A stretch of 64,000 nucleotides of DNA, taken from positions 14,601 through 78,600 of the forward strand of contig CAZUBQ010000004.1 in NCBI GenBank assembly GCA_964618995.1, written 5' to 3'. The notes under the pieces were generated by a model that did no database searches, was not told where the DNA came from, and saw only the letters and a program-made list of their open reading frames with translations. The position numbers and the translations under genes were made by a program. Within the stretch, counting starts at the first letter, position 1; each line of letters opens with the position of its first letter. This document shows, piece after piece, positions 6,653 to 40,150 of the stretch. This DNA comes from an uncultured Candidatus Poseidoniales archaeon (GTDB lineage Archaea > Thermoplasmatota > Poseidoniia > Poseidoniales > Thalassarchaeaceae).

Positions 6653-6738
6653 TGTCATCATCCCATAAACCGCTACGCGGTTCAGCGTACGCAGCCTCAT
6701 TTCGCATTTAACCCCGTTGGGCTTGCGCCCAACCCTCG

Positions 6739-8462: not shown

Positions 8463-8617
8463 TTGAAGCGATTGTCAAATCCAAGTGCCCCATATCTCGT
8501 ATGCCGCCCCCGCCCGTGGGTGTGCATACGTGCGTTTCGCGCCATATCGTCAGGGGAACCAACATAAGCGGACCGCAAACCTGTGTGTCTCGGGATGCAC
8601 GCTGGGCGAAGTCCTGG

Positions 8618-13248: not shown

Positions 13249-13451
13249 GCCAATCCGCCCGCGCACCTCTGGAACTCAAGGTCGAACGGCCGTTCCAACC
13301 CCGGTTTATCAAACGCTGCATCAAGCGACCAGCGCGTGGTCGACACTGAGCAGGTCGGCACGGCTGCGCCTAGGAGTGACAGCAGCCTCGGTCGGTGAAT
13401 GCTTTATCCATAACCGGACCAAGACCGCGAGCGCAAGCGGGGGAATGTGGG

Positions 13452-24944: not shown

Positions 24945-25139
24945 ATGGCAACCGTCACCTGCCCCAAGTGCGGGCAGGCAGACGAGGTCGAGGCTGCTAC
25001 GGAATCCTGCCTGTTCTTCCACGAGTGCTCAGGTTGCCAGGTCCTGCTGAAGCCGCTCACCGGTGATTGCTGTGTCATCTGTTCCTTTGGCGATGAAAAA
25101 TGCCCACCTAAACTCGACGAAGAATCCTGTTGTGATTGA
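24945..25139 (+). CDS. Small (64 aa) cysteine-rich zinc-ribbon-like protein.
   Basis: MATVTCPKCGQ...HECSGCQVLLKPLTGDCCVICSFGDEKCPP...ESCCD has 12 Cys in 64 aa. It starts 4 nt after the zinc-knuckle gene stop. The longer ORF 24588..25139 is rejected because it overlaps the upstream gene. Confidence 0.5.
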   Translation: MATVTCPKCGQADEVEAATESCLFFHECSGCQVLLKPLTGDCCVICSFGDEKCPPKLDEESCCD

Positions 25140-27084: not shown

Positions 27085-28356
27085 ATGCCCAGACCGCCGG
27101 TCGCCGACCCTATGTCCAGTGATGAGGCGGCCGATGAGGCGGATTCTGTCCACATCATGGGCGCCGGTCTGTCAGGGCTTGCGGCGGCTATCACACTGGC
27201 GAATGCCGGGCGAGAGGTGCACGTGCACGACATCCGTGAGGACTCCGGAGCGCGCTTCGACGGTGACTTCCAGGGGTTAGAGAACTGGACAAGCGACTCT
27301 GATTTCGTAGATGAACTGGCTACTTGGGGAATCGACCTATCAGATTTCAAGACGACGGACTTCCACACCATCGACCTCATCCATCCAGACGACGAGATTA
27401 CCAAGGCGTGGAGTCCGAAGGTAGCCTTCCGTGTAGTTGAACGTGGCACTGCTTCCCATACCATCGACCAGAGCCTGAAACGCCAGGCACTCGCCGCTGG
27501 AGTGAATCTGCACTACAAGTCGCGGGTGGACCCAGAGGACTGCCGCATTGTGGCGGCGGGTCCGAAGGATACCTCGGCGTTGGCGTTCTGCGAGGTGTTC
27601 GAGACCTCGTATCCGAACACGGTCGCCTTCCATTTCAACGACAAACTCGCCCCGGGAGCCTACGCCTACATGATCGTCATCGACGGCGTCGGCCTCATCT
27701 GCTCCTGCCTGTGGCGCAAACAGAAGCGCAACGAACGCTTCCTGAACGAGACACTGGCGTGGTACGATAAGCACTATCCAGAGTTGGAACGGAAGTCAGT
27801 GAAGCGGATTGGAGGCAAGGGAGACTTCACCCTCAATCGGCGCTACAAGGTGAACGGCCGCTATTATGTCGGCGAGGCGGGTGGCCTGCAGGACTTCATG
27901 TGGGGATTCGGGATGCGTTACGCCATCACCAGCGGTGTACTGGCGGCGCAGGACATCTTGGGCGAGTGCGACTACGAGACCGAAGTTCGGCGACGGCTTC
28001 TGCCGACGGTTCGCACGAGCGTCTCCAATCGCTGGCTGATGAACCGGGTGAGCAACCGCTCCTTCAAGCGCTTGGCGAAGGCTTGGATGAAAGATCAGGA
28101 GAAGCGGCAGGATGGATTGCCGTTCATTGAGAAGATGTTCCGCCCCGACGCATTCCGCTGGCTGATCTACAACCTGTTCGCTCGCTGGGTGCTGAAGCGG
28201 GTGGACACCGGTGATGGGAGGGTGATTCACCGTCTGCCCTACCGAGGTGCGCTCAAGCGGGACGAGTGGGATCCATCTGAAGAAGCGGTAGCTGTCGGAG
28301 AACGCTGGAAGCAGCAGCGGCGCAGGAAGAGCAGCTCTGTCGCGGAAGAAGAGTGA
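27085..28356 (+). CDS. FAD-dependent oxidoreductase of the geranylgeranyl-reductase / flavin monooxygenase-like (GGR) family.
   Basis: IMGAGLSGLAAAITLANAGREVHVHD (Rossmann GxGxxG) and a later YYVGEAGG FAD motif. Confidence 0.65.
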   Translation: MPRPPVADPMSSDEAADEADSVHIMGAGLSGLAAAITLANAGREVHVHDIREDSGARFDGDFQGLENWTSDSDFVDELATWGIDLSDFKTTDFHTIDLIHPDDEITKAWSPKVAFRVVERGTASHTIDQSLKRQALAAGVNLHYKSRVDPEDCRIVAAGPKDTSALAFCEVFETSYPNTVAFHFNDKLAPGAYAYMIVIDGVGLICSCLWRKQKRNERFLNETLAWYDKHYPELERKSVKRIGGKGDFTLNRRYKVNGRYYVGEAGGLQDFMWGFGMRYAITSGVLAAQDILGECDYETEVRRRLLPTVRTSVSNRWLMNRVSNRSFKRLAKAWMKDQEKRQDGLPFIEKMFRPDAFRWLIYNLFARWVLKRVDTGDGRVIHRLPYRGALKRDEWDPSEEAVAVGERWKQQRRRKSSSVAEEE

Positions 28357-28481: not shown

Positions 28482-29312
28482 ATGGACAACAACCTCGTCA
28501 ACTACGGGGTGACTGACACCGGCATCGCCATCATCGAACTCGCCTCGGACTCCGCCGGAGACCCGCTTGAGCCAGACAAGATTGGCCCGAACACCTACAC
28601 CCACGAGATGATGCGCGACATCGACAGCGCTGTCGTACGCGCCCGCTTCGACGACGACGTGCACGTCATCATCATCACTGGTCACGGGGAGAAGTTCTTC
28701 AGTGCCGGAGCGAGCATCCAGATGCTCGACAAGGTCACTCCCGGATTCAAGTACAATTTCTGCCTGCATGCCAACGAGACCCTCTCCCGCCTTGAGCAGA
28801 CCCCTAAGCTGGTCATCGCCGCCATCAACGGCCACGCGGTCGGCGGTGGGCTGGAGATCGCCATGGCAGCGGACATCCGCATCGCGCGCAAGGACGCTGG
28901 CAAGTGCGGCCTACCAGAGATCAACCTCGGGGTGCTGGCTGGAACTGGCGGAACAGCAAGGCTGGCGCGGCTCATCGGCAAGGCGCGGGCGCTGGAATAT
29001 CTGGTCAGTGGCGAGTTGATGGCATTCGAGAAGGCGGAGGAGATGAACCTCGTCAACCATGTCTGGGACGGCTCGCTGGCCGAGTTCCGCCAAGACATCC
29101 TCGACTACGCCGGCCAGTTCACGCTGCCTTACAAGGCGACCCTCGCCGTTGGCAACATCAAGCGCAGCGTGCAGACCGGCATGGAGATTCCGTTCGAGTA
29201 CCATTTGGCGCTCGAACGAGAACTGCAGGCTGCTCTGTTCGGCAGCGACGACGCCAAGGAAGGCATCGCCGCCTACGTCGAGCGCCGCACGCCTCGATTC
29301 GAAGGCAAGTAA
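28482..29312 (+). CDS. Enoyl-CoA hydratase/isomerase (crotonase) family protein.
   Basis: FFSAGASIQMLD...AAINGHAVGGGLEIAMAADIRIA...PEINLGVLAGTGGTARL is the crotonase oxyanion-hole signature. Start chosen at MDNN; the ORF begins at 28425. Confidence 0.85.
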   Translation: MDNNLVNYGVTDTGIAIIELASDSAGDPLEPDKIGPNTYTHEMMRDIDSAVVRARFDDDVHVIIITGHGEKFFSAGASIQMLDKVTPGFKYNFCLHANETLSRLEQTPKLVIAAINGHAVGGGLEIAMAADIRIARKDAGKCGLPEINLGVLAGTGGTARLARLIGKARALEYLVSGELMAFEKAEEMNLVNHVWDGSLAEFRQDILDYAGQFTLPYKATLAVGNIKRSVQTGMEIPFEYHLALERELQAALFGSDDAKEGIAAYVERRTPRFEGK

Positions 29313-29375
29313 TCGCCTCACGTGCGAGCGCGGCCTGACTGTGTCAGGCCGCCACACGTTGGAAGCGTCGATTTG

Positions 29376-30563
29376 ATGAACTTCGGACAGTTCGCGCTGG
29401 TCATGGGACCGACAGAGGTGGTCGAAGAGCACGAGCCCAACTTCGAGGCTTGGATTGACCAGTTCAACGACTGGCAGACGCGCATCGGGTTCGACCCGGC
29501 ATGGCTGGGCGACTATCGATTCGAGATCAAGTTCGACTGGGACATCGCTGGCGACACCATCGAGTTCGGCGACTTCGAGGGCATGCCCAAGTGGGAACGT
29601 CGGATGCAAGTCCCACAGCAGAGCGTCCGCGACGCCATCATCAGCATGGTGAGCGTCCAGGGTGACACCGAGTTCGCAAGCGTGGAGCAGCAATGGCACC
29701 TCCTCGATTCAGCACCCACGGAGTACGACCGCAAGTCTGCGATGAGAATCATGTGCGAAGAGCAGAGACACGGCTGGCAGATGGCCTACGTGCTGTGCAA
29801 CTACTTCGGCGAGCATGGCATCCGCGAGGCACAGAAACTTCTGGAGAGAAACTCGGGCGGCAATCCTCAGCGAGAGGAGGGGGAGGGGCAGCGTCTGCTA
29901 GGTTCGTTCAACGAGCCAATCGACCACTGGCTTGATTTCTTCATGTTCACGCACTTCATCGATCGTGACGGCAAATTCCAACTGAAGATGCTCTCCACTT
30001 CCTCATTCAAGCCACTTGCCGCCAGCATGGGACCGATGCTCAAGGAGGAGTCGTTCCACCTCGGCACGGGCGCCAATGGAATCCGCCGTATCGTCAAGCA
30101 GGGAGTCATCCCGTGTTCCCTGCTGCAGAAGTACATCAACAAGTGGACCAGCACCGGCCTCGATCTGTTCGGCGTCGATGAATCCACGTCAGCGCAGTGG
30201 GCATATGTCTACGGAATCAAAGGGCGTTACGACGAGCGTGAGGTGGACACGCCAGCAGTACGTGAACACCTGAATGAGGAGAGTAGGATGCACTACTTCG
30301 AGGAACTCAACCTGGAGATGGAGCGCATCAACAAGTCACGCCACGAAGGTGAGCCTGATCTATACATCCCATCAGACAAGTTCCACCGCGGCATCGGCAA
30401 GTTCGCCGGTGTTCACCACACCACCCACGGGGAGCCGTTCGAGGGAAGCGATGAGGATTGGCAGACGTATCTCAGTGAGATGCTGCCCTCTGACGAGGAC
30501 GAGGCGACGCTCAAGGAACTGTTCAAGCAGGAATGGATCCAGTACCGCGAATGGAAGGAGTGA
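29376..30563 (+). CDS. Ferritin-like diiron oxygenase resembling benzoyl-CoA 2,3-epoxidase BoxB / the PaaA family.
   Basis: Two E...ExxH diiron motifs with the right spacing: E99, E129-QR-H132, D196, E225-SF-H228 (CEEQRHGW and LKEESFHLG), numbered from MNFGQFAL. Confidence 0.5.
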   Translation: MNFGQFALVMGPTEVVEEHEPNFEAWIDQFNDWQTRIGFDPAWLGDYRFEIKFDWDIAGDTIEFGDFEGMPKWERRMQVPQQSVRDAIISMVSVQGDTEFASVEQQWHLLDSAPTEYDRKSAMRIMCEEQRHGWQMAYVLCNYFGEHGIREAQKLLERNSGGNPQREEGEGQRLLGSFNEPIDHWLDFFMFTHFIDRDGKFQLKMLSTSSFKPLAASMGPMLKEESFHLGTGANGIRRIVKQGVIPCSLLQKYINKWTSTGLDLFGVDESTSAQWAYVYGIKGRYDEREVDTPAVREHLNEESRMHYFEELNLEMERINKSRHEGEPDLYIPSDKFHRGIGKFAGVHHTTHGEPFEGSDEDWQTYLSEMLPSDEDEATLKELFKQEWIQYREWKE

Positions 30564-30597
30564 CGCGCACGCAGGCGCGTGCCCGGGGTGTTTACGA

Positions 30598-31167
30598 ATG
30601 CGTGCATACGCGCTGCTGAACATCGACAAGGAACGGCTGCAGCCGTTCTTCGACCGCGTGCCCGAGTTATTCCATACCCACCATCACAGTGAGGCTCAAG
30701 ACCCCGAAGGGTACGAAGAGCTGCTCTACCGCCTCTATCGTCCGTACACCGGAACGATGCTCGACATGGTAGATCGCTGGGCAGTGTTCGACGAGCGTGA
30801 TTGGAGGGAGGACGTGCAACGGGAGGTGATGCTGTTCCTGTACGCCATTCGCTACCCGGACACGCTGCTGATCGAGAGTCTGACAGACAAGGCGCGCTCC
30901 GACCTGCCTCGACTGTCGACCTACCTGCACTTCACCAAGCACACCTACGCCATCTGGGACGAGGATACCCGCAAGGGACTCTGCCGGCTGGGAATGGAGA
31001 TTCCACCACTCGACTGCGCCGACCCGTACATCTACGGCGCCTACATCTCCGCCATCGAGCTGCTCAAGGACATCGCCCCCTTCACCAGCTTCCTAGAGCA
31101 CGATGTGCCTCGTCAGCGCCTGTTCCAAGCCGCTCTCGCCTCATGGGGCCGCGAGGGGGGTGACTGA
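30598..31167 (+). CDS. Hypothetical protein of about 190 aa, possibly an accessory subunit to the upstream diiron oxygenase.
   Basis: In-frame ORF directly between the BoxB-like gene and the dehydrogenase. The longer ORF (30274..31167) overlaps the upstream gene, so the start was set at MRAYALL. No motif recognised. Confidence 0.35.
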   Translation: MRAYALLNIDKERLQPFFDRVPELFHTHHHSEAQDPEGYEELLYRLYRPYTGTMLDMVDRWAVFDERDWREDVQREVMLFLYAIRYPDTLLIESLTDKARSDLPRLSTYLHFTKHTYAIWDEDTRKGLCRLGMEIPPLDCADPYIYGAYISAIELLKDIAPFTSFLEHDVPRQRLFQAALASWGREGGD

Positions 31168-32058
31168 GTGACTGTCGAACGAGTGGCCGTAATCGGTGCG
31201 GGCACGATGGGCGCCGGCATCGCGCAACTGTGCGCACAGGCCGGATGGCGCACGAACCTCTACGATGCGTTTCCCGATGGGCTGGCTGCAGGGATGCAAC
31301 GCATCTCCGACTTCTGGGATGCTGGCATCGAGCGAGGCAAGACCACCGAGGCTGAGAAACGGGGATGGTCGGCCAATCTGTACGCAGTGACCGACTTCGC
31401 AGAGGCGGTCGAGGATGCTGATCTGGTCATCGAAGCGGTGCCCGAGAATATAGAACTCAAACAGGATATCTTCGCCAGGCTGGATTCACACGCGCCCGCA
31501 CACGCGCTGTTGGCTACGAACACCTCCGGACTGGAGATCTCACAGATTGCTACCGCCACGAGCCGTCCCGAGCGGGTCATCGGGATGCATTTCTTCAATC
31601 CAGTCCCGATTATGAAATTGCTCGAACTGGTTAGACACGACGGCACCGCCGAGGACACCATCGAGGCTGCCGAGGCGGTCGGAGCCGCACTCGGAAAGAC
31701 CTGCATCGTCGTGCGCGACGTGCCCGGATTCGCCACCAGCCGGCTCGGAGTCGTGCTCGGAAACGAGGCGATTCGCATGCTCGCGGACGGCGTCGCCTCA
31801 GCCAGCGACATCGACACCGCCATGCAGTTGGGCTACAAGCACCCGCTCGGTCCGCTCGAACTAACCGATCTCGTCGGCCTTGACGTGCGTCGTGACATCC
31901 TCAACAATCTGGCCATCGCCTTCGACGATGACCGCTACCTGCCCCACCCGCTGCTCGATGCACTGGTGGCCGAAGGAAGCCTCGGTAAGAAGACTGGGAG
32001 TGGCATCTACGACTGGTCGAGCGGCCAGAAGGAAGACCGGAAACTTCCGGGCTTGTGA
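31168..32058 (+). CDS. 3-hydroxyacyl-CoA dehydrogenase (NAD-binding; FadB/PaaH/Hbd family).
   Basis: VAVIGAGTMGAGIAQL (NAD Rossmann)...NTSGL...GMHFFNPVPIMKLLELV...GFATSRL. GTG start immediately after a GGGGGG RBS. Confidence 0.9.
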   Translation: MTVERVAVIGAGTMGAGIAQLCAQAGWRTNLYDAFPDGLAAGMQRISDFWDAGIERGKTTEAEKRGWSANLYAVTDFAEAVEDADLVIEAVPENIELKQDIFARLDSHAPAHALLATNTSGLEISQIATATSRPERVIGMHFFNPVPIMKLLELVRHDGTAEDTIEAAEAVGAALGKTCIVVRDVPGFATSRLGVVLGNEAIRMLADGVASASDIDTAMQLGYKHPLGPLELTDLVGLDVRRDILNNLAIAFDDDRYLPHPLLDALVAEGSLGKKTGSGIYDWSSGQKEDRKLPGL

Positions 32059-32113
32059 CCTACCTCGCCTCTGCGGAGTCTGTGCTGTTCTCGAACCCTG
32101 AGAGGCCGAACAT

Positions 32114-32380
32114 CTAGTGAACCGGTTGATGATCAGGCGCGACCACACCATCGACATCCTCGAGGCCCCAATCCGACATGCTCCAACCTCTCTCGTGGAG
32201 GTAGTACAGTACCATCTTGGTCACTACCTCAATACTGGCTATGCCGAAACCTACCGTCCAGCTTCCAGTAATGATTCTGGCGATTAGGATGGTGTCCGTA
32301 GTTGCTATTGTTCTCCATGATAGGGTCTTAACTAAGCTGCGTGCCTTGTTTGCGTGCCCTGTTCCTTCAATGTGCGCCAT
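32114..32380 (-). CDS. DUF2061 small membrane protein.
   Basis: SLVKTLSWRTIATTDTILIARIITGSWTVGFGIASIEVVTKMVLYYLHERGW matches the DUF2061 consensus. Confidence 0.6.
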   Translation of the reverse strand: MAHIEGTGHANKARSLVKTLSWRTIATTDTILIARIITGSWTVGFGIASIEVVTKMVLYYLHERGWSMSDWGLEDVDGVVAPDHQPVH

Positions 32381-32423
32381 ACCCTTTGCTGAGCATGATG
32401 TGGGATAACCCCTCCTACGGCGA

Positions 32424-32438
32424 CGAAAACAAAAAATG
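32424..32438 (-). terminator. Oligo-T tract (minus strand), a possible archaeal terminator downstream of the crotonase gene at 32559..33341.
   Basis: Plus-strand acgaaaacaaaaaatgcgg, which reads ccgcattttttgttttcgt on the minus strand. Confidence 0.3.
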
Positions 32439-32558
32439 CGGTCGAATCGTCTCTATTACGACCGCAATCCCCTGTCCGCCGCCGATGCATGCGGTGGCGA
32501 TTCCGTAGCGGCCGCCCGAGCGGGGCAGTTCGTGTGCGAGGGTGACAGCCGACAGAAA

Positions 32559-33341
32559 TCAACTGAATTCGGGGTCGCGCTTCTCAAGGAAGGCCGCGAC
32601 GCCTTCCTTGAAATCGTCACTCATGGCGGCATCGGTGATCAACATCTGCTCAAAATCCAACTGCGGATCGAAGAACATCGAGGACTGTGAATCGAGCAAC
32701 TGCTTGGAGGCGCGTCGTGAGCGAAGCGACCACCTGCTCCAGTCCCGAGCAACCTCAATCGCCCTGTCCAGCAACTCATCGTTGTCGACGACCTCGTCCA
32801 CCGCACCGTAGGCGAGGGCTGTCTCGGGACCCCAGGTCTCGTTGTTGAAGAAGAAGCGCTTCGTTCTCTGCAGGCCGACCAGCCGCGGCAGCAGCCAAGT
32901 CGTTCCCCCGTCCGGTGTGAGCCCGAGACGAAAGAAAGCGGCGGCGAGTTTCGCGTCCGGTCCCGCCACCCGGTAATCGGCGGACAGCGCCAACCCGAGT
33001 CCGGCACCGGCAGCGGCACCATTGAGAGCGGCAACGTACACCTTCTCGGTGGTCCTGAGCCGCGACAGCAGCGGGTGAAGTATGGTTGTCAACTCGTCCA
33101 CCAAGGGGCCGATGGTCCCCGATTCCAGGTGATGCTCGAAGGCGTTGATGTCCGCGCCCGCGGAGAAGAACTGCCCTGTGCCTGTCAGAATGATGGCGCG
33201 TACGTCGTGGTCGTCCATCTGGGCGTTGAGCGCGTCTGAAATCCCCTGCATGGTATCCGCATCGAAGGCGTTCTTGGCCGATTCCGCCTCAATCCGAACC
33301 AGCGCCACCCCGCCAGCGTGCTTCTCGACTGTGAGGGCCAC
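32559..33341 (-). CDS. Enoyl-CoA hydratase (crotonase family).
   Basis: VRAIILTGTGQFFSAGADINAFE...VAALNGAAAGAGLGLALSADYRVA. Confidence 0.85.
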   Translation of the reverse strand: MALTVEKHAGGVALVRIEAESAKNAFDADTMQGISDALNAQMDDHDVRAIILTGTGQFFSAGADINAFEHHLESGTIGPLVDELTTILHPLLSRLRTTEKVYVAALNGAAAGAGLGLALSADYRVAGPDAKLAAAFFRLGLTPDGGTTWLLPRLVGLQRTKRFFFNNETWGPETALAYGAVDEVVDNDELLDRAIEVARDWSRWSLRSRRASKQLLDSQSSMFFDPQLDFEQMLITDAAMSDDFKEGVAAFLEKRDPEFS

Positions 33342-33417
33342 GTATCCCGTCCGCAGTTCTCATTCTTGAAATGCATGAATGTGATAAGACGCGGCTCAGT
33401 GGCGCGGCCGATACACG

Positions 33418-34836
33418 ATGCACACGCGCGAGCAACTCTACATCGACGGTCAGTGGGTCGAAGCCACCGGCGAAGGCGACATTCAGGTCATTGACCCCGC
33501 CACCGAGGAACTGGTGGGCTCTGTTCCGGTCGGCTCGTCAGCGGATGTGGACGCGGCCGTCGCTGCTGCTCGGCGCGCATTCCCAGAGTGGGCCCAGAGC
33601 ACCCTTGAGGAGCGGGCAGACATCCTGAATCAACTGTCGGCCCTGTTCAAGGAGCGCGGCGAGGAACTGGCTCAACTGATCACTTCCGAGGTCGGCACCC
33701 CAATCGGATACTCGCGCATGGCGATGGTCGGGACACCCAGTGTGGTGCTGCGTTCGTATGCCAAACTGCTCGCTGTTTTTGAATTCGAGGAGGAGATTCG
33801 CAACTCGTTGGTCGTCAAGGAGCCAATCGGCGTCTGCGGCATGATCACCCCGTGGAACTTCCCTCTGCACCAGATAATCGGGAAGGTTGCTCCCGCCATC
33901 GCCGCCGGCTGCACGATGGTCCTCAAACCCTCCAGGGAAGCCCCGCTCAATGCCTTCGTGCTCGCCGACATGCTCGACGAGCTCGGCCTACCTGACGGCG
34001 TGTTCAACCTCGTCAGCGGCCATGGAAGCATCGTGGGCCAAGCCTTGTCCGTACATCCAGATGTGGATCTGGTCTCCTTCACAGGCAGCACGGGCGCGGG
34101 CGTGCGCGTGAGCGAGGCTGCTGCGCCGAGTGTGAAGCGCGTGACACTCGAACTGGGCGGCAAGAGCGCCAATATCATCCTCGATGATGCGGACATCGCC
34201 ACCGCTGCCAAGGTTGCCATCAGCGCCTGCTTCGCCAACTCCGGTCAGACCTGTTCCGCACTCACCCGACTGCTGGTGCCAACCGGTGCCCGCGACGAGG
34301 TGGTGGACATCATCTCCTCCCGCATGGCAGGCTACTCCGTAGGCGACCCGCGAGACGAATCAGTGCGCTGCGGCCCGCTCGTGTCCGCCAACCAGCAGAC
34401 CAGTGTGTCGGAGTACATCTCCAGTGGAATCGAAGAGGGGGCTACCCTCATTTCTGGTGGAGAAGGAATGCCTGACGGGCTCGATTCCGGATTCTACGTC
34501 AAGCCGACGGTGTTCGCTGATGTAACACCGGACATGCGCATCTGGCGCGAGGAGATCTTCGGACCGGTGCTCGCCATCACCACCTACGACAGCGAGGAGG
34601 AGGCGGTCGCGCTGGCGAATGACTCGGAATACGGATTGTCCGGTGGAGTCTGGTCAGCCGACGAGGATCGCGCCATGTCAGTGGCACGCCAACTGCGAAC
34701 CGGACAGGTGAGCATCAACGGCGGGGCGTTCAACATCTCCGCGCCGTTCGGTGGCTACAAGATGTCAGGCAACGGCCGTGAACTGGGCGCTCACGGACTC
34801 GAGGAGTTCCTCGAAGTGAAGGCGATTCAGCGCTGA
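33418..34836 (+). CDS. NAD(P)-dependent aldehyde dehydrogenase.
   Basis: ITPWNFPL...ELGGKSANII...FANSGQTCSA...EEIFGPV are the ALDH catalytic Cys/Glu motifs. Confidence 0.9.
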   Translation: MHTREQLYIDGQWVEATGEGDIQVIDPATEELVGSVPVGSSADVDAAVAAARRAFPEWAQSTLEERADILNQLSALFKERGEELAQLITSEVGTPIGYSRMAMVGTPSVVLRSYAKLLAVFEFEEEIRNSLVVKEPIGVCGMITPWNFPLHQIIGKVAPAIAAGCTMVLKPSREAPLNAFVLADMLDELGLPDGVFNLVSGHGSIVGQALSVHPDVDLVSFTGSTGAGVRVSEAAAPSVKRVTLELGGKSANIILDDADIATAAKVAISACFANSGQTCSALTRLLVPTGARDEVVDIISSRMAGYSVGDPRDESVRCGPLVSANQQTSVSEYISSGIEEGATLISGGEGMPDGLDSGFYVKPTVFADVTPDMRIWREEIFGPVLAITTYDSEEEAVALANDSEYGLSGGVWSADEDRAMSVARQLRTGQVSINGGAFNISAPFGGYKMSGNGRELGAHGLEEFLEVKAIQR

Positions 34837-34845
34837 TAGGGAGGG

Positions 34846-35481
34846 GTGCCGATGGCCGATTCCGGTAGCGCTGACAGACCACCGAGGCTCCTGCTCATCG
34901 GAGGCGGCACAGGTGTGGGCAAGACGACCTTGGCTAAGGCCGTGGCTCACGAATACGGGTTCGGACGCATAGTCAGCACTGACACCATCCGCGAGGTGAT
35001 GCGTGCCACCTCTGGCCCTGACGCACCAACGGCTCTGAACCGCTCATCCTACGGGAATGGAGAGACCGGGGATGCGGTCACCGATTGGCTCGATGCCTGT
35101 GCTGCAGTACGACCGGGGGTCGACGCCGTCATTTCGCGGGCGCGCAGGGAAGGAGTAGATTTGGTGTTGGAGGGGGTTCATCTGGTGCCAGAGGAAGGAT
35201 TCCTACACTCATGGAATAGCCAAGGCGGCGTCGCAGTGGGCACGATCGTCACCATAGGGCATGAAGGCACACATCGAAAGCGCATCGAGCAGCGCGAGGA
35301 GCACACCTACCGAGGTCCCACTCGCTATCTAGCGGCGTTCGAACGCATTCGTGCAATCCAGCGCGGCATCGAGGAGAGAGCGGGTGGAGCAAACTGGAAA
35401 TCACTCGACAACCATTTGGAACAGAACTCTATCGAGAGGGTCGAGCAGTGGTTGACAACAGCGTGGTACCAACGGAGATAG
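34846..35481 (+). CDS. P-loop kinase of the 2-phosphoglycerate kinase family.
   Basis: LLLIGGGTGVGKTTLAKAVAHEYGFGRIVSTDTIREVMR has a Walker A followed by the STDxIREVMR block typical of archaeal 2-PGK-like kinases. Confidence 0.55.
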   Translation: MPMADSGSADRPPRLLLIGGGTGVGKTTLAKAVAHEYGFGRIVSTDTIREVMRATSGPDAPTALNRSSYGNGETGDAVTDWLDACAAVRPGVDAVISRARREGVDLVLEGVHLVPEEGFLHSWNSQGGVAVGTIVTIGHEGTHRKRIEQREEHTYRGPTRYLAAFERIRAIQRGIEERAGGANWKSLDNHLEQNSIERVEQWLTTAWYQRR

Positions 35482-35485
35482 TGGG

Positions 35486-36499
35486 ATGGGTGACGTTGAG
35501 AAGCCGGAATCCTGGCTGCCACATCTAGTCGGCCTCATCCTACCTCTAGCGATAATCTCAGGTAACCTTCTGGGTGGCTGGTTCACTCTCGGAGGTATCG
35601 TACTCGGTCTCGGCGTCTATCCGATTCTCGATGTCCTGCTGGGAACTGCAAAGCAACGCGGCGGGATTCCGACCAACGGACAACCGTTCGAACTCATCCT
35701 ATTGTTGGGCTCTCTGCTTCCATTCATCGCGCTGGGGACACTGTTCCATCGCGCCCTGTTGGATGGTTCAGTGTGGACCACTTGGACCGCTGCCCTATCC
35801 ACCGGCATAGCTACTGGACAAGGAATCATCGTTGCCCACGAATTGGGACACCGCAAGCCGAAGAGCGCTCGTTGGTGGCTGGCGCGGGTTCTGCTGTTCA
35901 GCGTTCACTATACGCACTTCACCACCGAACACAATCACAACCACCACCGTAACACCGCCATCCACGATATTGATCCGGCCAGTGCACCCTACCACCGTGG
36001 CCTGTGGGTGCAGATTGCAAGAACCGTGCCATTGCAGTTCATCTCGGCGTTCAAAATCAATCAGGAGCGCGGCAAGAAAGGTGTGCGCAATCCCGTGCTG
36101 CAGGGGTTATTTCTGCAGGTAATCGCAATCATAGCCGTTTGGCAATTGTTCGGTCAATGGGTCGCATTGGCATGGCTGGTGGCGGCGGCGTTCGCCATCA
36201 CCCTGCTCGAATTCGTGAACTACATCCGCCACTGGGGGCTCAGAAGAGAAGCAGGTGAACGACAGACGTACATGCACTCATGGCAGACTGAGGCTCGCTG
36301 GTCACGCTGGACCCTGCTTGAGCTCACCATCCACCCTGCGCATCATGTGAAGGCGAGCCTGCCGTTCTGGCAACTACGACCCTACGAAGATGCACCGACT
36401 CTCCCCGCTGGCTACTACGCCTGCTTCTGGCCCTGTGTCATACCCCCACTATGGAGACGCTGGGTCGGCAAGGGCATCCCTGCCGACCAACGAGTCTGA
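35486..36499 (+). CDS. AlkB-type integral-membrane diiron hydroxylase (alkane-1-monooxygenase / fatty-acid desaturase superfamily).
   Basis: Four His boxes in AlkB order: HELGHRK, EHNHNHH, NYIRHWGL, HPAHH. Multiple TM helices. Confidence 0.75.
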   Translation: MGDVEKPESWLPHLVGLILPLAIISGNLLGGWFTLGGIVLGLGVYPILDVLLGTAKQRGGIPTNGQPFELILLLGSLLPFIALGTLFHRALLDGSVWTTWTAALSTGIATGQGIIVAHELGHRKPKSARWWLARVLLFSVHYTHFTTEHNHNHHRNTAIHDIDPASAPYHRGLWVQIARTVPLQFISAFKINQERGKKGVRNPVLQGLFLQVIAIIAVWQLFGQWVALAWLVAAAFAITLLEFVNYIRHWGLRREAGERQTYMHSWQTEARWSRWTLLELTIHPAHHVKASLPFWQLRPYEDAPTLPAGYYACFWPCVIPPLWRRWVGKGIPADQRV

Positions 36500-36507
36500 C
36501 GTGTCGA

Positions 36508-36942
36508 TCAATTGAGGTCGACCGTAGCCGTGAGCGCGGCAATCTCCATGCGGGAGTGTCTGTCTGCTATGCCCACCTCTGCAGAGATGGAGAAAACACC
36601 GCTGTTGTTGCTCACGCTGATGCCCGTGAGCACAATCTCGACGCCACGGTGCTCTCCGTGGCGCATCAGGTCGTCCGCGGCGGACAGGGCGGCGGCTTCG
36701 CAAGCCGCATCCCAGTCATTGCCCGCGGCGACCAGGCCGGAGGTGCGGTTCTCTACCAGCGGCTGCCACACAGTGATCACATCGCTGCTTGTGTCCAGCA
36801 CATCACGGCTGCCCGTGTCGTAAGGCTCGCCGAGCCCAGCGACAGAGACGCCGTACCATGCCATAGACAGCAGTGAGAGCATCAACACGAGGCCACTGGC
36901 CAACAGCATCTGGCCCACATCTCTGCGATCATTCGAACGCAT
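36508..36942 (-). CDS. Pilin-like protein with a class-III (type IV prepilin-like) signal peptide.
   Basis: MRSNDRRDVGQ|MLLASGLVLMLSLLSMAWYGV has a short charged leader then a hydrophobic helix. The start overlaps the upstream stop in a TGATG arrangement. It is the last gene of the pilus operon. Confidence 0.45.
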   Translation of the reverse strand: MRSNDRRDVGQMLLASGLVLMLSLLSMAWYGVSVAGLGEPYDTGSRDVLDTSSDVITVWQPLVENRTSGLVAAGNDWDAACEAAALSAADDLMRHGEHRGVEIVLTGISVSNNSGVFSISAEVGIADRHSRMEIAALTATVDLN

Positions 36943-37418
36943 CAGGAACCACCTCCGGCGTGCCACACCTGCAGGCTGACCGTCCACACGACACCTTGGT
37001 CATGTACGAGTTCATGCACGCTGAGTGTACGTCCCAGAGGAGTACTTCCCCCTCCGTAGCGTGCCAACGGACCTCCGTCACGGGCAACCCAGCAGTTGCC
37101 AAGTACAGTAGATGGCAGCGAGGAGAGGAGTTCATTGCAGGCCACATCGAGGTCGCCTGCAGCGAGCAGTTCACCCATGCGACCTGTATGATTGGCGGAA
37201 TCGACGGCTGCGGGAGCGATTACCTGCACGAGCGCGTCCTCAGCGGCGAATTGGAGAGATGCGTCAGAGGCGGGTGAGACCGGGTCAGGAACCTGCAGCT
37301 GGATGATGAATGTGGCGGACATGAAGAACAGCCAGAAGAGCGTCAGCATCTCCAGCACGTGCACCTGTGCACACGCGTCCGAGCGAATACTTCGCTGATT
37401 GAAACCTTCGGCCTTCAT
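36942..37418 (-). CDS. Hypothetical membrane-anchored protein, possibly a pilin-like subunit of the Tad/Epd-type pilus.
   Basis: N-terminal charged segment (MKAEGFNQRSIRSD) followed by a hydrophobic helix (VHVLEMLTLFWLFFMSATFII). Lies 12 nt downstream of the TadC-like gene. Confidence 0.4.
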   Translation of the reverse strand: MKAEGFNQRSIRSDACAQVHVLEMLTLFWLFFMSATFIIQLQVPDPVSPASDASLQFAAEDALVQVIAPAAVDSANHTGRMGELLAAGDLDVACNELLSSLPSTVLGNCWVARDGGPLARYGGGSTPLGRTLSVHELVHDQGVVWTVSLQVWHAGGGS

Positions 37419-37430
37419 CTAATCACCTCG

Positions 37431-39005
37431 TTAGGTGACGATGAACGGAGCCAGTCCGGGGTTCAGGCCATCGTCGAGCGGGACCCCGATGAGGTCGGGG
37501 GAGAAGCATACCACGTTGAATGCCAGAATGGCAGAGATGAGCATCAGCCCAGCGTGCTTGCATCCGCTAGACAGTCTTCCAGTCGCCATCAGACCGGCCA
37601 TGATACCGTTGCCGAGCGCCTGCGCGCTCACCCCGTAGAAGAACACCACGAGGAAGAACAGTGGGTCTATGGCACGGATGACCATGTTGCCGATCTGGGC
37701 GCTCTCCTCACCGCTGTTAGACGAGGAAATCGCAGGGATGAACACCTTGGATAGCACGACAATGACGCCGAGGAACACGAAGAACGAGGTCCAGATGACC
37801 GCGATGTACGACGCAATCGCTCGCTCGCGCTCCAGTTCGAGGAACTTGATCTCGCGACTGTCGTTGGCGGCGGTCACGAGGATGTCGGAGATCTTTCCAC
37901 CGGCCTTGTTCGCCTCGTGGATGAGGCTGATAGCCCGTGTCACGAGCGGCGTTCCCACCCTATCTGCGAACATGTCGAGCACGTCCGCGAACGCCACGTC
38001 CCACGACAACTGGTCGGACATCTTGCCCACCTCGTGGTTCAACGCCCCGTACTCTGAGGTGGCTAACGTTCTCACCGCCAGCGTCATCGACAAACCACCC
38101 TTCCAGAACTCCGCCAGATCACGCAGGAAGTCCGGGAACTTCTGTTCCACCGCAGACAGTACCTTCATCTGCCGATCCCAGTAGATCGCTCCGGGGAATA
38201 CGATGAGCAGGAACCCATATCCGAAGAAGTTCACGAACAGGAAGGGACGCAACTCCAACGGCCCTAGATTCACCTCTGGCCCGATGAACAGCGAGGCGTT
38301 GTTCATGTAATTCGGGATGCCGTCGTACGAGTCGACCTCGATGGTCAACAAGAACGACTTCATGGGGGGCAGGCCGCGATCGAACTGCACATGCACCTCC
38401 CATCCTTCAGCGGTCTTCGCATCGGGTATCACGATGCTGCACGGATTAGCAGGGTCGCTCTCGGTAGGCTCCCAGTTTGTCACACTCTGCACTGTGAAGG
38501 GGTTGGTCGGTATACCAGCGTCGTTCGGCTCCCATATCGTAACGCTGTATGCGTAAGATTCGGAGGCTATCGCGGTGCAGGACATACGTAACTCCGTCTC
38601 AGGATGAGATAGAGTCCCCAGTCGATTAGGGTCCATCCCAGGTACGGAGAACTCCTGGCCCAGGCCCGGACCCTTCACACCCGGCCAATCGATAGCCCAT
38701 GTCTGAGTGCGTGGGCGCTCCTTCGTCAACCAGCAGGATTCGTTATCCGCGTAGTCTGGCGCAAGGTTGCTGTCGAATCCTTGCGCACCCGACATGCTGC
38801 AGAATTTGTTCACGAACAACGGATTGCCGTTGGTCGGTTGAAAGATGAGGTCGGTGTTCATCGCCCAGAATCCAAGGCAGAGCATGCCGATAAGGGAACT
38901 CGTGAGGGTAATCGCCCAGAAGATCGAGCCGGTGTTGTCGTCCTTCGGCAGTTCAAGGTCGACGCGGATCTTCTGCTTCTTTCTGCGCCCCCTTCTGCGT
39001 GCCAT
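37431..39005 (-). CDS. TadB/TadC (T2SS-F / FlaJ) family pilus platform protein with a large inserted soluble domain.
   Basis: T2SS-F-type helices (C-terminal LAVRTLATSEYGALNHEVGKMSDQLSWDVAFADVLDMFADRVGTPLVTRAISL) and a ~250-aa loop insert. Confidence 0.7.
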   Translation of the reverse strand: MARRRGRRKKQKIRVDLELPKDDNTGSIFWAITLTSSLIGMLCLGFWAMNTDLIFQPTNGNPLFVNKFCSMSGAQGFDSNLAPDYADNESCWLTKERPRTQTWAIDWPGVKGPGLGQEFSVPGMDPNRLGTLSHPETELRMSCTAIASESYAYSVTIWEPNDAGIPTNPFTVQSVTNWEPTESDPANPCSIVIPDAKTAEGWEVHVQFDRGLPPMKSFLLTIEVDSYDGIPNYMNNASLFIGPEVNLGPLELRPFLFVNFFGYGFLLIVFPGAIYWDRQMKVLSAVEQKFPDFLRDLAEFWKGGLSMTLAVRTLATSEYGALNHEVGKMSDQLSWDVAFADVLDMFADRVGTPLVTRAISLIHEANKAGGKISDILVTAANDSREIKFLELERERAIASYIAVIWTSFFVFLGVIVVLSKVFIPAISSSNSGEESAQIGNMVIRAIDPLFFLVVFFYGVSAQALGNGIMAGLMATGRLSSGCKHAGLMLISAILAFNVVCFSPDLIGVPLDDGLNPGLAPFIVT

Positions 39006-39028
39006 TCGGTTTCACCTCCTTCGCGTTT

Positions 39029-40150
39029 TCACATCTTCATCTCGTCGCTCATCATCCAAACGAGGATTCCGTAGGCGATGTGGATGACGGGCAGCACCCC
39101 CATCACCACGATGTAGACCATGTTCTCGGACAACTGGGCGCCGGATCCGGACACCCAGAACATGATGACGAGCATCACGATGAGGAACAATGGCATGGCG
39201 ACGGCGACCACGACGTAGGACTCCGCCATCATGGCGAGGGTCTCAAGGAAGACATGCAGCCTCACCCGGTTCTCGCGCATGTAGTGCTCGGCTCGGTTGA
39301 GGAAGTAGAGCTTCAGGTTGCCGCCCGAGGTGAGTGTGCCCACCATGCCTTGGAAGAACTCAGTCACCCACGGAGATGCCGCTCGGTCAACAGCCAGTTT
39401 CAATGCCGTTACCAGGTCCATGCCCAGCAACGAGACGTCACGATAGATCATCGAGGAGTCATGGGCGATGTCTCCGTAGATGTGCTCGTTCTGGGCAAGT
39501 GACCTGAAAATCCGGTCAGGCGTTGAGTTGGCGGCTGCCATGGCTGCCGTGTATGATGCCACGTACGGAAGATACTTCTCCAACTCGTAGCCGCGCTTGT
39601 TCTTCTCGCGAAGGGCGCTGTTCATGAAATGACGGTAGGCCATGAAAGGTATCAGCAGGCCACAGGAGAGAACCAATATCACCTTCCACGATTCTTGGAA
39701 CACCTTGGTCTCGTACTCCGGGCAACCGCCGTACGCTACAGTCTCTCCATCAGGACCTTCACCGCTCCAATCTATCGTTTCATCTACAGCTTCCTCGTTC
39801 CAGAACGCCCACTCGATGCACGGGATGACCGTTTCGGGGTTCTGCTGGTTCTCGAAGATGGCGATGCCTCCAATGAGTGGGAAGAACGCCAGAACGAGGA
39901 TGCCGATGCATACGATGAATGTTGCAATCGTACTCATGATCGACGAGGCCTTGTAGACCTCGGGCATGATGCGGATGTTAGCCTGTGACAGCAGTTGCTT
40001 GATCTCTCTGTCGTCGCGCGCCTTCTTGCGTATCAGGCGACCGAGAATGATGTTCGAGAAGCGCTGCCATCCTGACAGCGTCATCCCCTCGAAGCGAACC
40101 TTTTCCTCCTGCTCCTTCTTTGCCACTCGCGCTCCCCCTCGATACCTCAC
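39029..40150 (-). CDS. TadC/FlaJ-family (T2SS-F domain) pilus assembly membrane protein.
   Basis: YLPYVASYTAAMAAANSTPDRIFRSLAQNEHIYGDIAHDSSMIYRDVSLLGMDLVTALKLAVDRAASP is a T2SS-F domain signature. Overlaps the ATPase gene by 4 nt. Confidence 0.75.
   Translation of the reverse strand: MRYRGGARVAKKEQEEKVRFEGMTLSGWQRFSNIILGRLIRKKARDDREIKQLLSQANIRIMPEVYKASSIMSTIATFIVCIGILVLAFFPLIGGIAIFENQQNPETVIPCIEWAFWNEEAVDETIDWSGEGPDGETVAYGGCPEYETKVFQESWKVILVLSCGLLIPFMAYRHFMNSALREKNKRGYELEKYLPYVASYTAAMAAANSTPDRIFRSLAQNEHIYGDIAHDSSMIYRDVSLLGMDLVTALKLAVDRAASPWVTEFFQGMVGTLTSGGNLKLYFLNRAEHYMRENRVRLHVFLETLAMMAESYVVVAVAMPLFLIVMLVIMFWVSGSGAQLSENMVYIVVMGVLPVIHIAYGILVWMMSDEMKM

Follow-up and report, generated by a model that had tools for sequence, protein, structure and literature searches.

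A short-form BoxB-family diiron oxygenase and an AlkB-like hydroxylase in two juxtaposed gene units of a Marine Group II archaeon

Results

The window, which here means the whole stretch of DNA analysed (64 kb), comes from a Marine Group II archaeon (Poseidoniales, MGIIb), which bears out an earlier note that had taken it for part of an archaeal genome. All nine genes are real, each reading frame listed in that note lies at or within a few codons of where it had placed it, and Pfam and NCBIfam profile searches found in each listed reading frame the family signal claimed for it. The 8-kb cluster is not one unit but two juxtaposed and separable ones, here called A and B. Unit A, found order-wide, comprises a hydratase-type enoyl-CoA hydratase (crotonase 1; 28482-29312, + strand; ECH_1, 9e-45), a short-form BoxB-family diiron oxygenase of 395 aa (29376-30563, +), a protein of 190 aa (30595-31167, +) and a short, PaaH/Hbd-like 3-hydroxyacyl-CoA dehydrogenase (31168-32058, +; 3HCDH_N, 6e-64; 3HCDH, 2e-28), with an FAD-dependent oxidoreductase of 423 aa upstream (27085-28356, +). 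Unit B is variable and comprises a PaaG-type enoyl-CoA isomerase (crotonase 2; 32559-33341, - strand; ECH_1, 4e-52), an NAD(P)-dependent aldehyde dehydrogenase of the generic betaine-aldehyde-dehydrogenase-like class (33418-34836, +; Aldedh, 7e-166), a P-loop kinase (34846-35481, +) and a short AlkB-like membrane diiron hydroxylase of 337 aa (35486-36499, +). A small membrane protein of 88 aa with a DUF2061 domain (32114-32380, -; PF09834, 4.8e-21) lies outside the conserved unit, and none of the related loci compared had a homologue at the same position.

The genes for crotonase 1, the BoxB-like protein, the 190-aa protein and the dehydrogenase are co-directional, with gaps of 63, 31 and 0 nt, which makes unit A operon-like. 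Since stop and start codons also overlap in the relatives' copies of this neighbourhood, co-transcription is suggested. In unit B the P-loop kinase gene follows the aldehyde dehydrogenase gene after 9 nt and precedes the AlkB-like gene by 4 nt.

Assignment of the diiron protein to the BoxB family was confirmed, TIGR03225 (2e-67) and PDB 3PER (2.9e-49) being its only strong matches in NCBIfam and PDB. The TIGR03225 score was 228 bits, 270 bits short of the equivalog cut-off of 499. The PaaA model gave 31 bits (1e-7), and an identity as an R2-, MiaE- or PaaA-type protein was rejected, as BoxB alone matches strongly. The diiron ligands proposed previously, E99, E129/H132, D196 and E225/H228, proved to be exact and are conserved. 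The equivalents of the BoxB second-shell residues, Q95, T98, S102, F178, F188 and F191, are all conserved, every short form has Ile or Val in place of BoxB T210, and pocket Phe residues differ among short-form members. The protein falls in a clade whose sister group is canonical BoxB. Its homologues number more than 7600, with at least 592 species-level genome matches. The predicted structure, with a pLDDT of 56, was too poor for a three-dimensional look at the pocket.

The 190-aa protein had no match in Pfam, NCBIfam or PDB and is lineage-restricted. Its gene adjoins the BoxB-like gene in 72 of the 74 MGIIa and MGIIb loci, which were taken from species-representative genomes other than that of the window; the same is true of three or four loci from other Thermoplasmatota and of locus L085. 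The two genes stay together through every rearrangement seen, while the surrounding genes are reshuffled. Invariant polar residues are few in the 190-aa protein, which may therefore be non-catalytic.

Crotonase 1 has both catalytic glutamates, like PaaF, and its closest solved structures are generic hydratases (2PPY, 3e-63; 5ZAI); BoxC 2W3P was not among its best 60 PDB matches. Crotonase 2 is without both hydratase glutamates and carries the PaaG-type 'TPDGGTTWLLPR' motif with the catalytic Asp. Its nearest solved structures are PaaG proteins (6SLB, 3HRX and 4FZW_C; about 1e-37), and the PaaG and oxepin-hydrolase-alt models scored under cut-off. With an isomerase site in crotonase 2 and a hydratase site in crotonase 1, the flanking enzymes fit CoA chemistry. 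The window also encodes a third hydratase. All NCBIfam equivalogs scored under cut-off against the 3-hydroxyacyl-CoA dehydrogenase. In the FAD protein only an N-terminal dinucleotide-binding motif and a weak match of 40 bits to TIGR02032 (geranylgeranyl-reductase family) could be recognised; it is a divergent member of the geranylgeranyl-reductase/FixC/PHBH-type flavoprotein group.

The genes of the cluster are conserved in dozens of related genomes. In most MGII loci with a long enough flank, the BoxB-like/190-aa pair has the dehydrogenase gene downstream, and together with crotonase 1 this gene stays within a few kb of the pair in MGII and other Thermoplasmatota despite changed surroundings. 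The FAD protein adjoins crotonase 1 in MGIIb; in MGIIa the two are still together, inverted and 4-5 kb off, and in loci L077 and L079 no FAD protein was found near the BoxB-like gene. The PaaG-type isomerase has an aldehyde dehydrogenase partner in MGIIb, where the two genes diverge, and in MGIIa, where they share a strand and the dehydrogenase is another paralogue; the presence of this pair, as well as that of AlkB, fluctuates among loci. The same MGII neighbourhood holds clearly unrelated genes, i.e., aldolase, glpX, MoaC, MoaE and a type IV pilus locus. Outside the archaea, in bacteria of the Binatia type, a TctABC carboxylate transporter comes before the short-form enzyme and a NuoF-like FMN/4Fe-4S protein after it, an arrangement in keeping with an oxygenase that depends on a reductase and uses a carboxylate taken up by the cell. 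Some other short-form members are solitary, beside unrelated genes, and neither a crotonase nor a dehydrogenase lies close to the bacterial short forms.

A true BoxA with two [4Fe-4S] clusters was not found in the window by scans for cysteine motifs and for BoxA similarity, and neither was any rubredoxin-like or 4Fe-4S-motif reading frame. BoxC was likewise not found in the window; as a query it gave only a local match of 46 bits over 78 aa to crotonase 1. Among the window's reading frames of at least 230 aa, the cluster's own genes and the motif and similarity scans there was no CoA ligase, thiolase, BoxA, BoxC or ferredoxin/rubredoxin, and the pathway is thus incomplete as seen here. BoxA, BoxC and rubredoxin were also absent from about 100 related loci. 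A canonical locus with a BoxB of 475 aa, used as a positive control, displayed boxC-boxB-boxA, so the same method would have detected boxA and boxC. The statement in the earlier note that no BoxA-type reductase or rubredoxin partner is visible holds for true BoxA and rubredoxin, but a CysJ/FNR-type flavoprotein (11965-13266, -) is encoded in the window and is 33% identical to the FAD/NADPH half of BoxA.

The best NCBIfam model for the aldehyde dehydrogenase was BADH (484 bits, cut-off 669) and its best PDB match 6X9L (2e-141). No BoxD or PaaN model was among its best 25 families, and BoxD 2VRO was not among its PDB matches at or below 1e-100. The P-loop kinase is a relative of the kinase domain of 2-phosphoglycerate kinase and mevalonate-3-phosphate-5-kinase; its proposed place in the former family stands as partial similarity but not as membership, since PRK04220 gave 115 bits (cut-off 343) and PRK12339 57 bits (cut-off 250). 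With or without AlkB, the kinase gene adjoins the pilus locus in MGIIa as well as in MGIIb. The four histidine boxes expected of the AlkB-like protein were located (HELGH at 118, EHNHNHH at 148, NYIRHWG at 245 and HPAHH at 283), and its kinship to AlkB is upheld by FA_desaturase (1.5e-26) and by AlkB 8F6T (1.3e-35) and 8SBB (1.5e-31) as the sole PDB matches; NCBIfam gave none. Outside its close relatives, identity does not exceed 59%; Gemmatimonadota and Planctomycetota have homologues, too. AlkB was adjacent in only two of the 74 MGII-type loci; contigs from the species of the window itself and from one other MGIIb genus also show this adjacency. In the remaining genomes the two units are split by unrelated genes or AlkB is missing. 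The AlkB-like gene is an accessory that adjoins unit B in only some MGIIb, and the co-occurrence of Box and AlkB signatures that had drawn attention to the locus comes down to a lineage-specific juxtaposition.

Discussion

The earlier note had read the cluster as the canonical aerobic Box pathway for benzoyl-CoA, one crotonase standing for BoxC and the aldehyde dehydrogenase for BoxD, next to an AlkB/aldehyde dehydrogenase alkane module. BoxB-family homology, the conserved benzoyl pocket and the presence of crotonases and an aldehyde dehydrogenase inside 8 kb speak for it, and so do the two glutamates of crotonase 1, which the BoxC active site has as well, as in PaaF-type hydratases (PMC4498308). 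Neither crotonase is BoxC-like, however, the aldehyde dehydrogenase is generic and not of the BoxD/PaaN type, BoxA is absent, the diiron protein falls well under the BoxB equivalog cut-off, and the gene order of the control locus did not recur in any of about 100 related loci. According to published work (PMC4498308), BoxB requires BoxC for turnover, and no substitute for it could be demonstrated among the genes here. The missing defining partners largely refute this reading, which we regard as highly improbable. It is also rather unlikely, though less so, that nothing but synteny unites the BoxB-like/190-aa pair, the beta-oxidation genes, the kinase and AlkB, whose functions would then have nothing to do with one another. 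Gene order is widely shared among Poseidoniales genomes, which makes adjacency by itself a weak argument; unrelated genes such as glpX and the pilus locus are kept in the same neighbourhood, AlkB and the isomerase/aldehyde dehydrogenase pair come and go, and the bacterial short forms lack the crotonase and dehydrogenase neighbours. Against this, the short gaps, common direction and overlapping codons suggest co-transcription, the dehydrogenase and crotonase 1 are still close in distant Thermoplasmatota with altered context, and the BoxB-like/190-aa pair outlasts all rearrangements seen.

General lipid catabolism is a more serious alternative, which we still consider unlikely. Here the genes would serve ordinary fatty-acid or alkane beta-oxidation and the diiron enzyme would only resemble BoxB and might, for instance, desaturate, hydroxylate or epoxidize an aliphatic or alicyclic acyl-CoA, or else act on another substrate. 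Fatty-acid degradation has been reported in all MGII genera (PMC6461757). Crotonase 1, the dehydrogenase and the aldehyde dehydrogenase are generic and under every specific equivalog cut-off, the window holds a third hydratase, BoxA, BoxC and a ligase were not found, and in the short forms T210 is changed and pocket Phe residues vary. PaaG-type isomerases of the crotonase superfamily can serve unsaturated fatty acids, too. On the other hand, six of seven benzoyl-positioning residues are retained, including the thioester-binding Q116, most of which are missing from PaaA, an enzyme for a different aromatic CoA ester, and we know of no characterised member of the BoxB/PaaA family that is active on aliphatic CoA esters.

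We tentatively favour, as the most likely reading, a non-canonical O2-dependent oxygenase of acyl-CoA, probably aroyl-CoA, which supplies beta-oxidation-type enzymes. The diiron enzyme would work like BoxB, its two irons being reduced by a loosely linked NAD(P)H-dependent flavoprotein; the FNR/CysJ-like protein and the FAD protein upstream of crotonase 1 are candidates, the latter as a candidate electron-transfer partner only. The reduced site would bind O2 and transfer one atom of oxygen to an acyl-CoA thioester bound in the BoxB-type pocket, most probably benzoyl-CoA or a close aroyl- or alicyclic-CoA analogue. The product would enter a non-canonical route without BoxC, ending in beta-oxidation-type steps by the PaaG-type isomerase, the hydratase and the 3-hydroxyacyl-CoA dehydrogenase, and any semialdehyde could be oxidized by the aldehyde dehydrogenase. 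The 190-aa protein may be an obligate accessory subunit of the oxygenase. In a subset of MGIIb, unit B would have acquired the AlkB-type hydroxylase, through which alkyl substrates could reach the same CoA chemistry by way of alcohol, aldehyde and acid; such a coupling of the two units is presumed. A ring-opening step is likewise presumed in the route of unit A.

Such chemistry had been called essentially uncharacterised in archaea. This stands in the biochemical sense, but the literature already describes alkB genes of MGII and their expression, with transcripts reported (PMC13488336), and an MGII 'boxB' was reported in 2016 among the MGII genes with high in situ expression (PMC5069720).

Compared with the known system, the two crotonases of 260-276 aa differ from BoxC, a two-domain crotonase of 550 aa. 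The short form is 80 aa shorter than BoxB and is without its N-terminal segment and two insertions. It keeps six of the seven residues that orient benzoyl-CoA in BoxB (Q116, T119, S123, F193, F203 and F206), whereas E. coli PaaA keeps only F193 of these six. The thioester binder Q116 is retained as Q95, and the seventh residue, T210, which governs ring orientation in BoxB, is replaced by I195.

Gene Inventory of the Segment

The window has a G+C content of about 59%, and named homologues identify the source organism as a Marine Group II (MGII) archaeon of the Poseidoniales, of the Thalassarchaeaceae/MGIIb type. All nine co-located ORFs between 28482 and 36499 lie at the positions that had been described for this cluster, and Pfam and NCBIfam agree on them. 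The first unit is a co-directional run of crotonase 1 (28482-29312, +), a ferritin-like protein of the PaaA_PaaC/BoxB type (29376-30563, +; here called the BoxB-like protein), a family-less ORF of 190 aa (30595-31167, +) and a 3-hydroxyacyl-CoA dehydrogenase (31168-32058, +), with intergenic gaps of 63, 31, and 0 nt. A FAD protein of 423 aa (27085-28356, +) is encoded directly upstream of crotonase 1. The second unit consists of crotonase 2 on the minus strand (32559-33341) and a co-directional run with gaps of 9 and 4 nt, which comprises an aldehyde dehydrogenase (ALDH; 33418-34836), a P-loop kinase (34846-35481) and a membrane protein of the FA_desaturase family (35486-36499; the AlkB-like protein). 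The kinase had been assigned to the 2-phosphoglycerate kinase family; it is a P-loop kinase, while the similarity to 2-phosphoglycerate kinase is partial only. One ORF of 88 aa, missing from the list in the earlier note, encodes a small DUF2061 membrane protein on the minus strand (32114-32380), where 500 nt separate the dehydrogenase from crotonase 2. The loci of other species showed no counterpart, and contigs of the same species have no called gene at that position.

The AlkB-like gene or the kinase directly abuts a type IV pilus or archaellum-like locus (36508-41682, -) that comprises two T2SSF-type membrane proteins, a T2SSE-type ATPase and two small ORFs; its domains were assigned from the orthologous genes in related contigs. 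The adjacency of kinase and pilus locus is kept in both MGII clades, MGIIa and MGIIb. Upstream of the cluster, a protein of 199 aa (24341-24940, +) carries about seven CCHC zinc knuckles ('CGxCxxxGHNxRTCP'; Pfam zf-CCHC_2, 5e-10) and is followed by a family-less Cys-rich ORF of 64 aa (24945-25139, +). Repeat proteins of this zinc-knuckle kind are uncommon in archaea. A third crotonase, of the hydratase type (44258-45115, -), stands side by side with a family-less ORF of 300 aa (45112-46014, -) and an ABC-transporter ATPase (43416-44198, -). Four large ORFs had no Pfam match at all: 827-6700 (-; 1957 aa), 8501-10579 (+; 692 aa), 19071-21755 (-; 894 aa), and 52820-55996 (-; 1058 aa). A Cdc6/Orc1 replication initiator gene is found at 14736-15977 (+), and a replication origin may lie near it.

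The BoxB-like Protein and Its Relatives

The strong matches of the BoxB-like protein were to BoxB only, namely to the profile TIGR03225 (2e-67, 228.1 bits, in three stretches) and to the structures 3PER/3PM5 (2.9e-49). The PaaA model TIGR02156 gave 31.2 bits (1e-7) and missed its cut-off of 280 bits, and identity to E. coli PaaA was 21%. The six diiron ligands read earlier from the sequence in the order E / ExxH / D / ExxH (E99, E129, H132, D196, E225, and H228) all occur; an alignment of nine sequences with canonical BoxB and PaaA among them shows no variation at these positions, and a wider one of 13 sequences shows none or next to none. Profile, structures and ligand set all point to the BoxB family, as had been proposed. 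According to a DFT study of 3PM5, benzoyl-CoA is oriented by Q116, T119, S123, F193, F203/F206, and T210 (PMC5489048). The BoxB-like protein keeps the equivalents Q95, T98, S102, F178, F188, and F191, while T210 is replaced by I195; this position is I, V or Q in every short form compared. E. coli PaaA has H, S, G, F, I, and I/G in these columns. Since the equivalents, though not that of T210, are kept here and PaaA keeps F193 alone, the pocket would be BoxB-like and not merely family-like.

With 395 aa, the protein is about 80 aa shorter than canonical BoxB (~470 aa), from which it differs by missing an N-terminal segment (~30 aa) and two internal insertions. Its TIGR03225 score is under half of the equivalog cut-off (499.1 bits). 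The score, the length and the replacement of T210 count against orthology to BoxB. The AF2 model, built on a shallow alignment (at least 75% identity), reached a pLDDT of 56; Foldseek returned BoxB entries only (E ~1e-7), and the TM-scores of 0.36-0.38 are uninformative for a superposition on 3PM5 because the model is poor.

Among 1.84 billion cluster representatives only 859 relatives were recorded, and among these, short forms of 351-394 aa could be told from canonical ones of about 465-495 aa. The neighbour-joining tree, a rough one calculated without support values, placed the MGII proteins among other short forms in a clade sister to canonical BoxB. Species-representative genomes were scanned with two peptide patterns, neither of which matches canonical BoxB, and yielded at least 592 relatives. 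MGII-type synteny was seen in 74 of the best 80 of them, including a few contigs that bear bacterial labels. The other six, labeled Binatia, Thermodesulfobacteriota, 'Deltaproteobacteria', 'Proteobacteria' or Thermoplasmatota, are 51-55% identical to the window protein. In L047, L062, and L080, and possibly in L079 and L085, a gene order of the MGIIa type surrounds the BoxB-like gene on contigs with bacterial deposit names (Salinimicrobium, Rhodobiaceae, a 'Deltaproteobacteria' single-cell assembly). These contigs are probably mis-binned or mislabeled.

The 190-aa Protein and Conservation of the Neighborhood

The window proteins were run by tblastn against all related loci. In 72 of the 74 MGII-type loci the 190-aa gene comes immediately after the BoxB-like gene. 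Its product is 60-72% identical to that of the window in MGIIb and 28-38% in MGIIa, where the BoxB-like protein shows 57-63%. Every taxon-labeled one of its 173 homologues is from MGII, Thermoplasmata or Euryarchaeota, and no sequence relatives were found outside the BoxB-like context. AF2 gave a confident model made up of helices only (pLDDT 83, pTM 0.78). A reading as HhH-GPD DNA-glycosylase-like enzyme was rejected, with a best Foldseek E-value of 1.4 and an empty PDB profile search; it is also undercut by the Asp residues, which vary in MGIIa and in other Thermoplasmatota. The pair of BoxB-like and 190-aa genes is kept in Thermoplasmatota outside MGII (L077, L079, L081, and L087) and in L085, with most other neighbors changed. 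A membrane protein of the FA_desaturase family, not of the AlkB-like type of the window, is encoded about 2 kb upstream of the pair in L079 (7060-8286, +).

The dehydrogenase is located downstream of the pair in most loci with a flank that is long enough. Crotonase 1 and the FAD protein are upstream neighbors in MGIIb and form an inverted pair at a distance of 4-5 kb in MGIIa. Crotonase 2 and the ALDH occur together in about half of the MGIIb loci at variable distance, and in MGIIa crotonase 2 is on the same strand as a different ALDH paralogue. In another MGIIb genus the gene block past the dehydrogenase is wholly different. Two extra genes are seen in MGIIa. One is an EamA-type carboxylate/amino-acid transporter gene between the 190-aa gene and the dehydrogenase. 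The other is a conserved upstream ORF of ~207 aa, which on reading resembled a helix-turn-helix regulator; NCBIfam gave no match for it, and Pfam none for an ORF at a comparable place in L077.

Four Binatia-type loci (L086, L088, L089, and L090) have a gene for a NuoF-like FMN/4Fe-4S protein downstream of the short-form gene, and a divergent fused TctA/TctB transporter with a TctC-like protein is encoded upstream in three of them; in L086 a gene for a luciferase-like monooxygenase is situated further out, past the Tct genes. Bacteria seem to equip the same oxygenase in another manner. Four more distant short forms are stand-alone genes with an uninformative context. Beside one bacterial short form (L096) a 'PaaX_M' match had suggested an aryl-CoA-sensing regulator; this candidate was discarded, as the genes are Cas2 and Cas1.

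Flanking Enzymes and Partners of the Box and Paa Pathways

Crotonase 1 is a generic two-Glu hydratase (PDB 2PPY, 3e-63). It was also considered as a single-domain BoxC, the ring-cleaving dihydrolase of the Box pathway; both Glu are present, but it is close kin of generic short-chain hydratases and this assignment is not supported. Crotonase 2 is without both hydratase Glu and, in an alignment with E. coli PaaG and PaaF, has the catalytic Asp in the PaaG context 'PD..GGTWLLPR'. Its best PDB matches are PaaG structures, it is 34% identical to PaaG, and it scores 168.7 bits with TIGR02280 (PaaG), missing the equivalog cut-off of 345. The ALDH had been likened to BoxD. This was not borne out, as its best models are BADH, Rv0768-type and StyD, all under cut-off, and its best similarity is not to the BoxD/PaaN subfamily. 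Its best PDB matches are generic ALDH/BADH entries, with 2VRO not among the matches at or below 1e-100, and the enzyme is generic and betaine-aldehyde-dehydrogenase-like in both MGII clades.

As a positive control, a canonical BoxB (P0385, 475 aa) was found encoded between a crotonase of 551 aa (BoxC) and a Fer4 + NAD_binding_1 protein (BoxA, the reductase). With the BoxC and BoxA of this locus, the window and all loci were searched. The BoxC query gave only 46 bits over 78 aa, and the window crotonases have 276 and 260 aa vs. ~550 aa of the two-domain BoxC, so that the BoxC suggestion was not upheld. The BoxC structure 2W3P was absent from the best 60 PDB matches of crotonase 1 and from the crotonase 2 matches at E <= 1e-20. 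The window and about 100 related loci yielded neither BoxA (2x[4Fe-4S] + FAD) nor BoxC. The absence of BoxC is a real gap, since BoxB turnover is reported to need BoxC (PMC4498308). The earlier statement that the window holds no BoxA-type reductase or rubredoxin stands: no full BoxA, 4Fe-4S or rubredoxin-like ORF was found. No rubredoxin or ferredoxin occurs among the small ORFs of the window, the Cys-rich ones being the CCHC zinc-knuckle repeat protein and the 64-aa ORF.

The FAD/NADPH half of BoxA matched a CysJ/FNR-type flavoprotein at 11965-13266 (-), about 16 kb from the BoxB-like gene, with 33% identity over 229 aa. This flavoprotein is of the FAD + NADPH type, without a ferredoxin, flavodoxin or Fe-S domain. 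In four MGIIa loci (L047, L048, L051, and L054) the orthologous gene is found 2-3 kb upstream of that for the BoxB-like protein, and we therefore regard the flavoprotein as a candidate electron donor, and as nothing more. For the FAD protein upstream of crotonase 1, PDB sequence and profile searches for a reductase class gave no match beyond the dinucleotide-binding motif and one short stretch of GGR-like sequence. Among the cluster's own genes there was no family match to PaaB, PaaC, PaaD or PaaE, and none to PaaZ, PaaJ or PaaK among the window proteins scanned.

The AlkB-like Protein

The assignment of the membrane protein to the AlkB family was supported by the His boxes HELGH (118), EHNHNHH (148), NYIRHWG (245), and HPAHH (283), all of which are present, and by matches to PF00487 (1.5e-26) and PDB 8F6T (1.3e-35); among solved structures, only those of AlkB are related to it. 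The clade of the protein is one of short forms (~340 aa), is shared with Gemmatimonadota and Planctomycetota, where the gene is stand-alone, and is named 'alkB-like' in the literature (PMC13488336). In the tblastn scan the gene was adjacent only in L011 and L013. The species to which the window belongs shows the same adjacency (L004-L007), as does one more genus (L008-L010), there with three unrelated genes between the two units. Of the electron chain of AlkB, which consists of rubredoxin (AlkG) and rubredoxin reductase, no rubredoxin-like ORF was found in the window and no rubredoxin among the called genes of related contigs. MGII alkB and alkB-like genes, their patchy spread and their transcription have already been published (Rinke et al., 2019, PMC6461757; PMC8166890; PMC9535955; PMC13488336). 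Archaeal alkB genes have been counted to 365, and the evidence for the MGII alkB-like genes consists of transcripts only (PMC13488336). The AlkB-like part is an optional gene, already discussed in the hydrocarbon-cycle literature, and adds little new.

Interpretation

The segment fits a set of two O2-dependent diiron enzymes beside CoA-ester processing enzymes, the soluble one order-wide and the membrane-bound one optional. The observation of the earlier note is confirmed and its interpretation partly supported. The BoxB-like protein falls into a separate subfamily, has a partner protein of its own and comes without BoxC; the label BoxB is not right for the protein, nor the label Box pathway for the cluster. 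The short-form BoxB with its 190-aa partner is the new part, while the AlkB part is already known.

The soluble enzyme would most likely act as BoxB does, on a benzoyl-CoA-like substrate. The flanking genes may be just general beta-oxidation genes. The whole arrangement may also be synteny without shared function. MGII 'boxB' has been reported as highly expressed in Red Sea metatranscriptomes (PMC5069720), and in full-text searches of the literature on MGII, Poseidoniales and Thermoplasmatota we found no published study of the function or gene context of the MGII BoxB-like gene. The boldest proposal would be that short-form BoxB and the new 190-aa subunit form a minimal, highly expressed aroyl-CoA epoxidase of the Poseidoniales core, independent of BoxA and BoxC, in a previously unrecognised archaeal route that degrades benzoate-like aromatic dissolved organic matter aerobically, with a ring opening unlike that of Box and Paa. 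We consider this proposal rather unlikely.

Marine Group II archaea, which have not been cultured, are very abundant in the surface ocean, and their carbon sources are inferred from genomes only. An order-wide BoxB-family oxygenase, reportedly highly expressed in situ and not assignable to the known benzoate pathway, is a testable gap in the predicted metabolism of MGII. If aroyl-CoA esters are oxidised, aromatic dissolved organic matter would have a sink in MGII, and the enzyme pair would represent the epoxide strategy of aromatic breakdown in a minimal form. If the substrate is another one, the annotation 'benzoyl-CoA 2,3-dioxygenase component B' on many of the more than 7,600 homologues would be misleading, although such names are borne by only some of the listed entries and NCBI naming differs. 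The weight of the finding lies mainly in the oxygenase pair, which is order-wide, expressed and unexplained, in a group of uncultured archaea that is abundant worldwide.

Comparison with Known Systems

The closest known system is BoxB, the oxygenase component of benzoyl-CoA 2,3-epoxidase, of Aromatoleum/Azoarcus evansii (3PM5, 3PER; TIGR03225). The BoxB-like protein shares with it the ferritin-like diiron fold family, ~38-41% identity to canonical representatives, identical ligands and the conserved equivalents of Q116, T119, S123, F193, F203, and F206, and is likewise expected to act as a monooxygenase on a CoA thioester and to depend on a reductase. It differs in being shorter (395 vs. ~473 aa), in the replacement of T210 by Ile/Val, in forming its own clade and in scoring under the equivalog cut-off. 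Furthermore, it was never beside boxA or boxC in the examined loci, and the MGII form is paired with a 190-aa protein that canonical BoxB lacks. The phenylacetyl-CoA 1,2-epoxidase PaaABCE with the Paa lower pathway (E. coli paaA-K) presents a similar succession of a diiron CoA-ester epoxidase, a PaaG-type isomerase, a PaaF-type hydratase and a PaaH-type dehydrogenase, but the oxygenase here is BoxB-like, not PaaA-like. With the alkane 1-monooxygenase AlkB of the Pseudomonas putida GPo1 type (8F6T, 8SBB), the membrane protein has in common the FA_desaturase-type membrane diiron domain and four His motifs including NYxxHxG; it differs by its 337 aa, the variant EHNHNHH/HPAHH, the lack of an NCBIfam match, and no rubredoxin or rubredoxin reductase nearby. 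The short forms in MAGs of Binatia, Thermodesulfobacteriota, and 'Deltaproteobacteria' (L086, L088-L090) belong to the same subfamily, with 51-55% identity in full-length alignment, but instead of a 190-aa partner, crotonase or dehydrogenase they have the NuoF-like FMN/4Fe-4S flavoprotein nearby.
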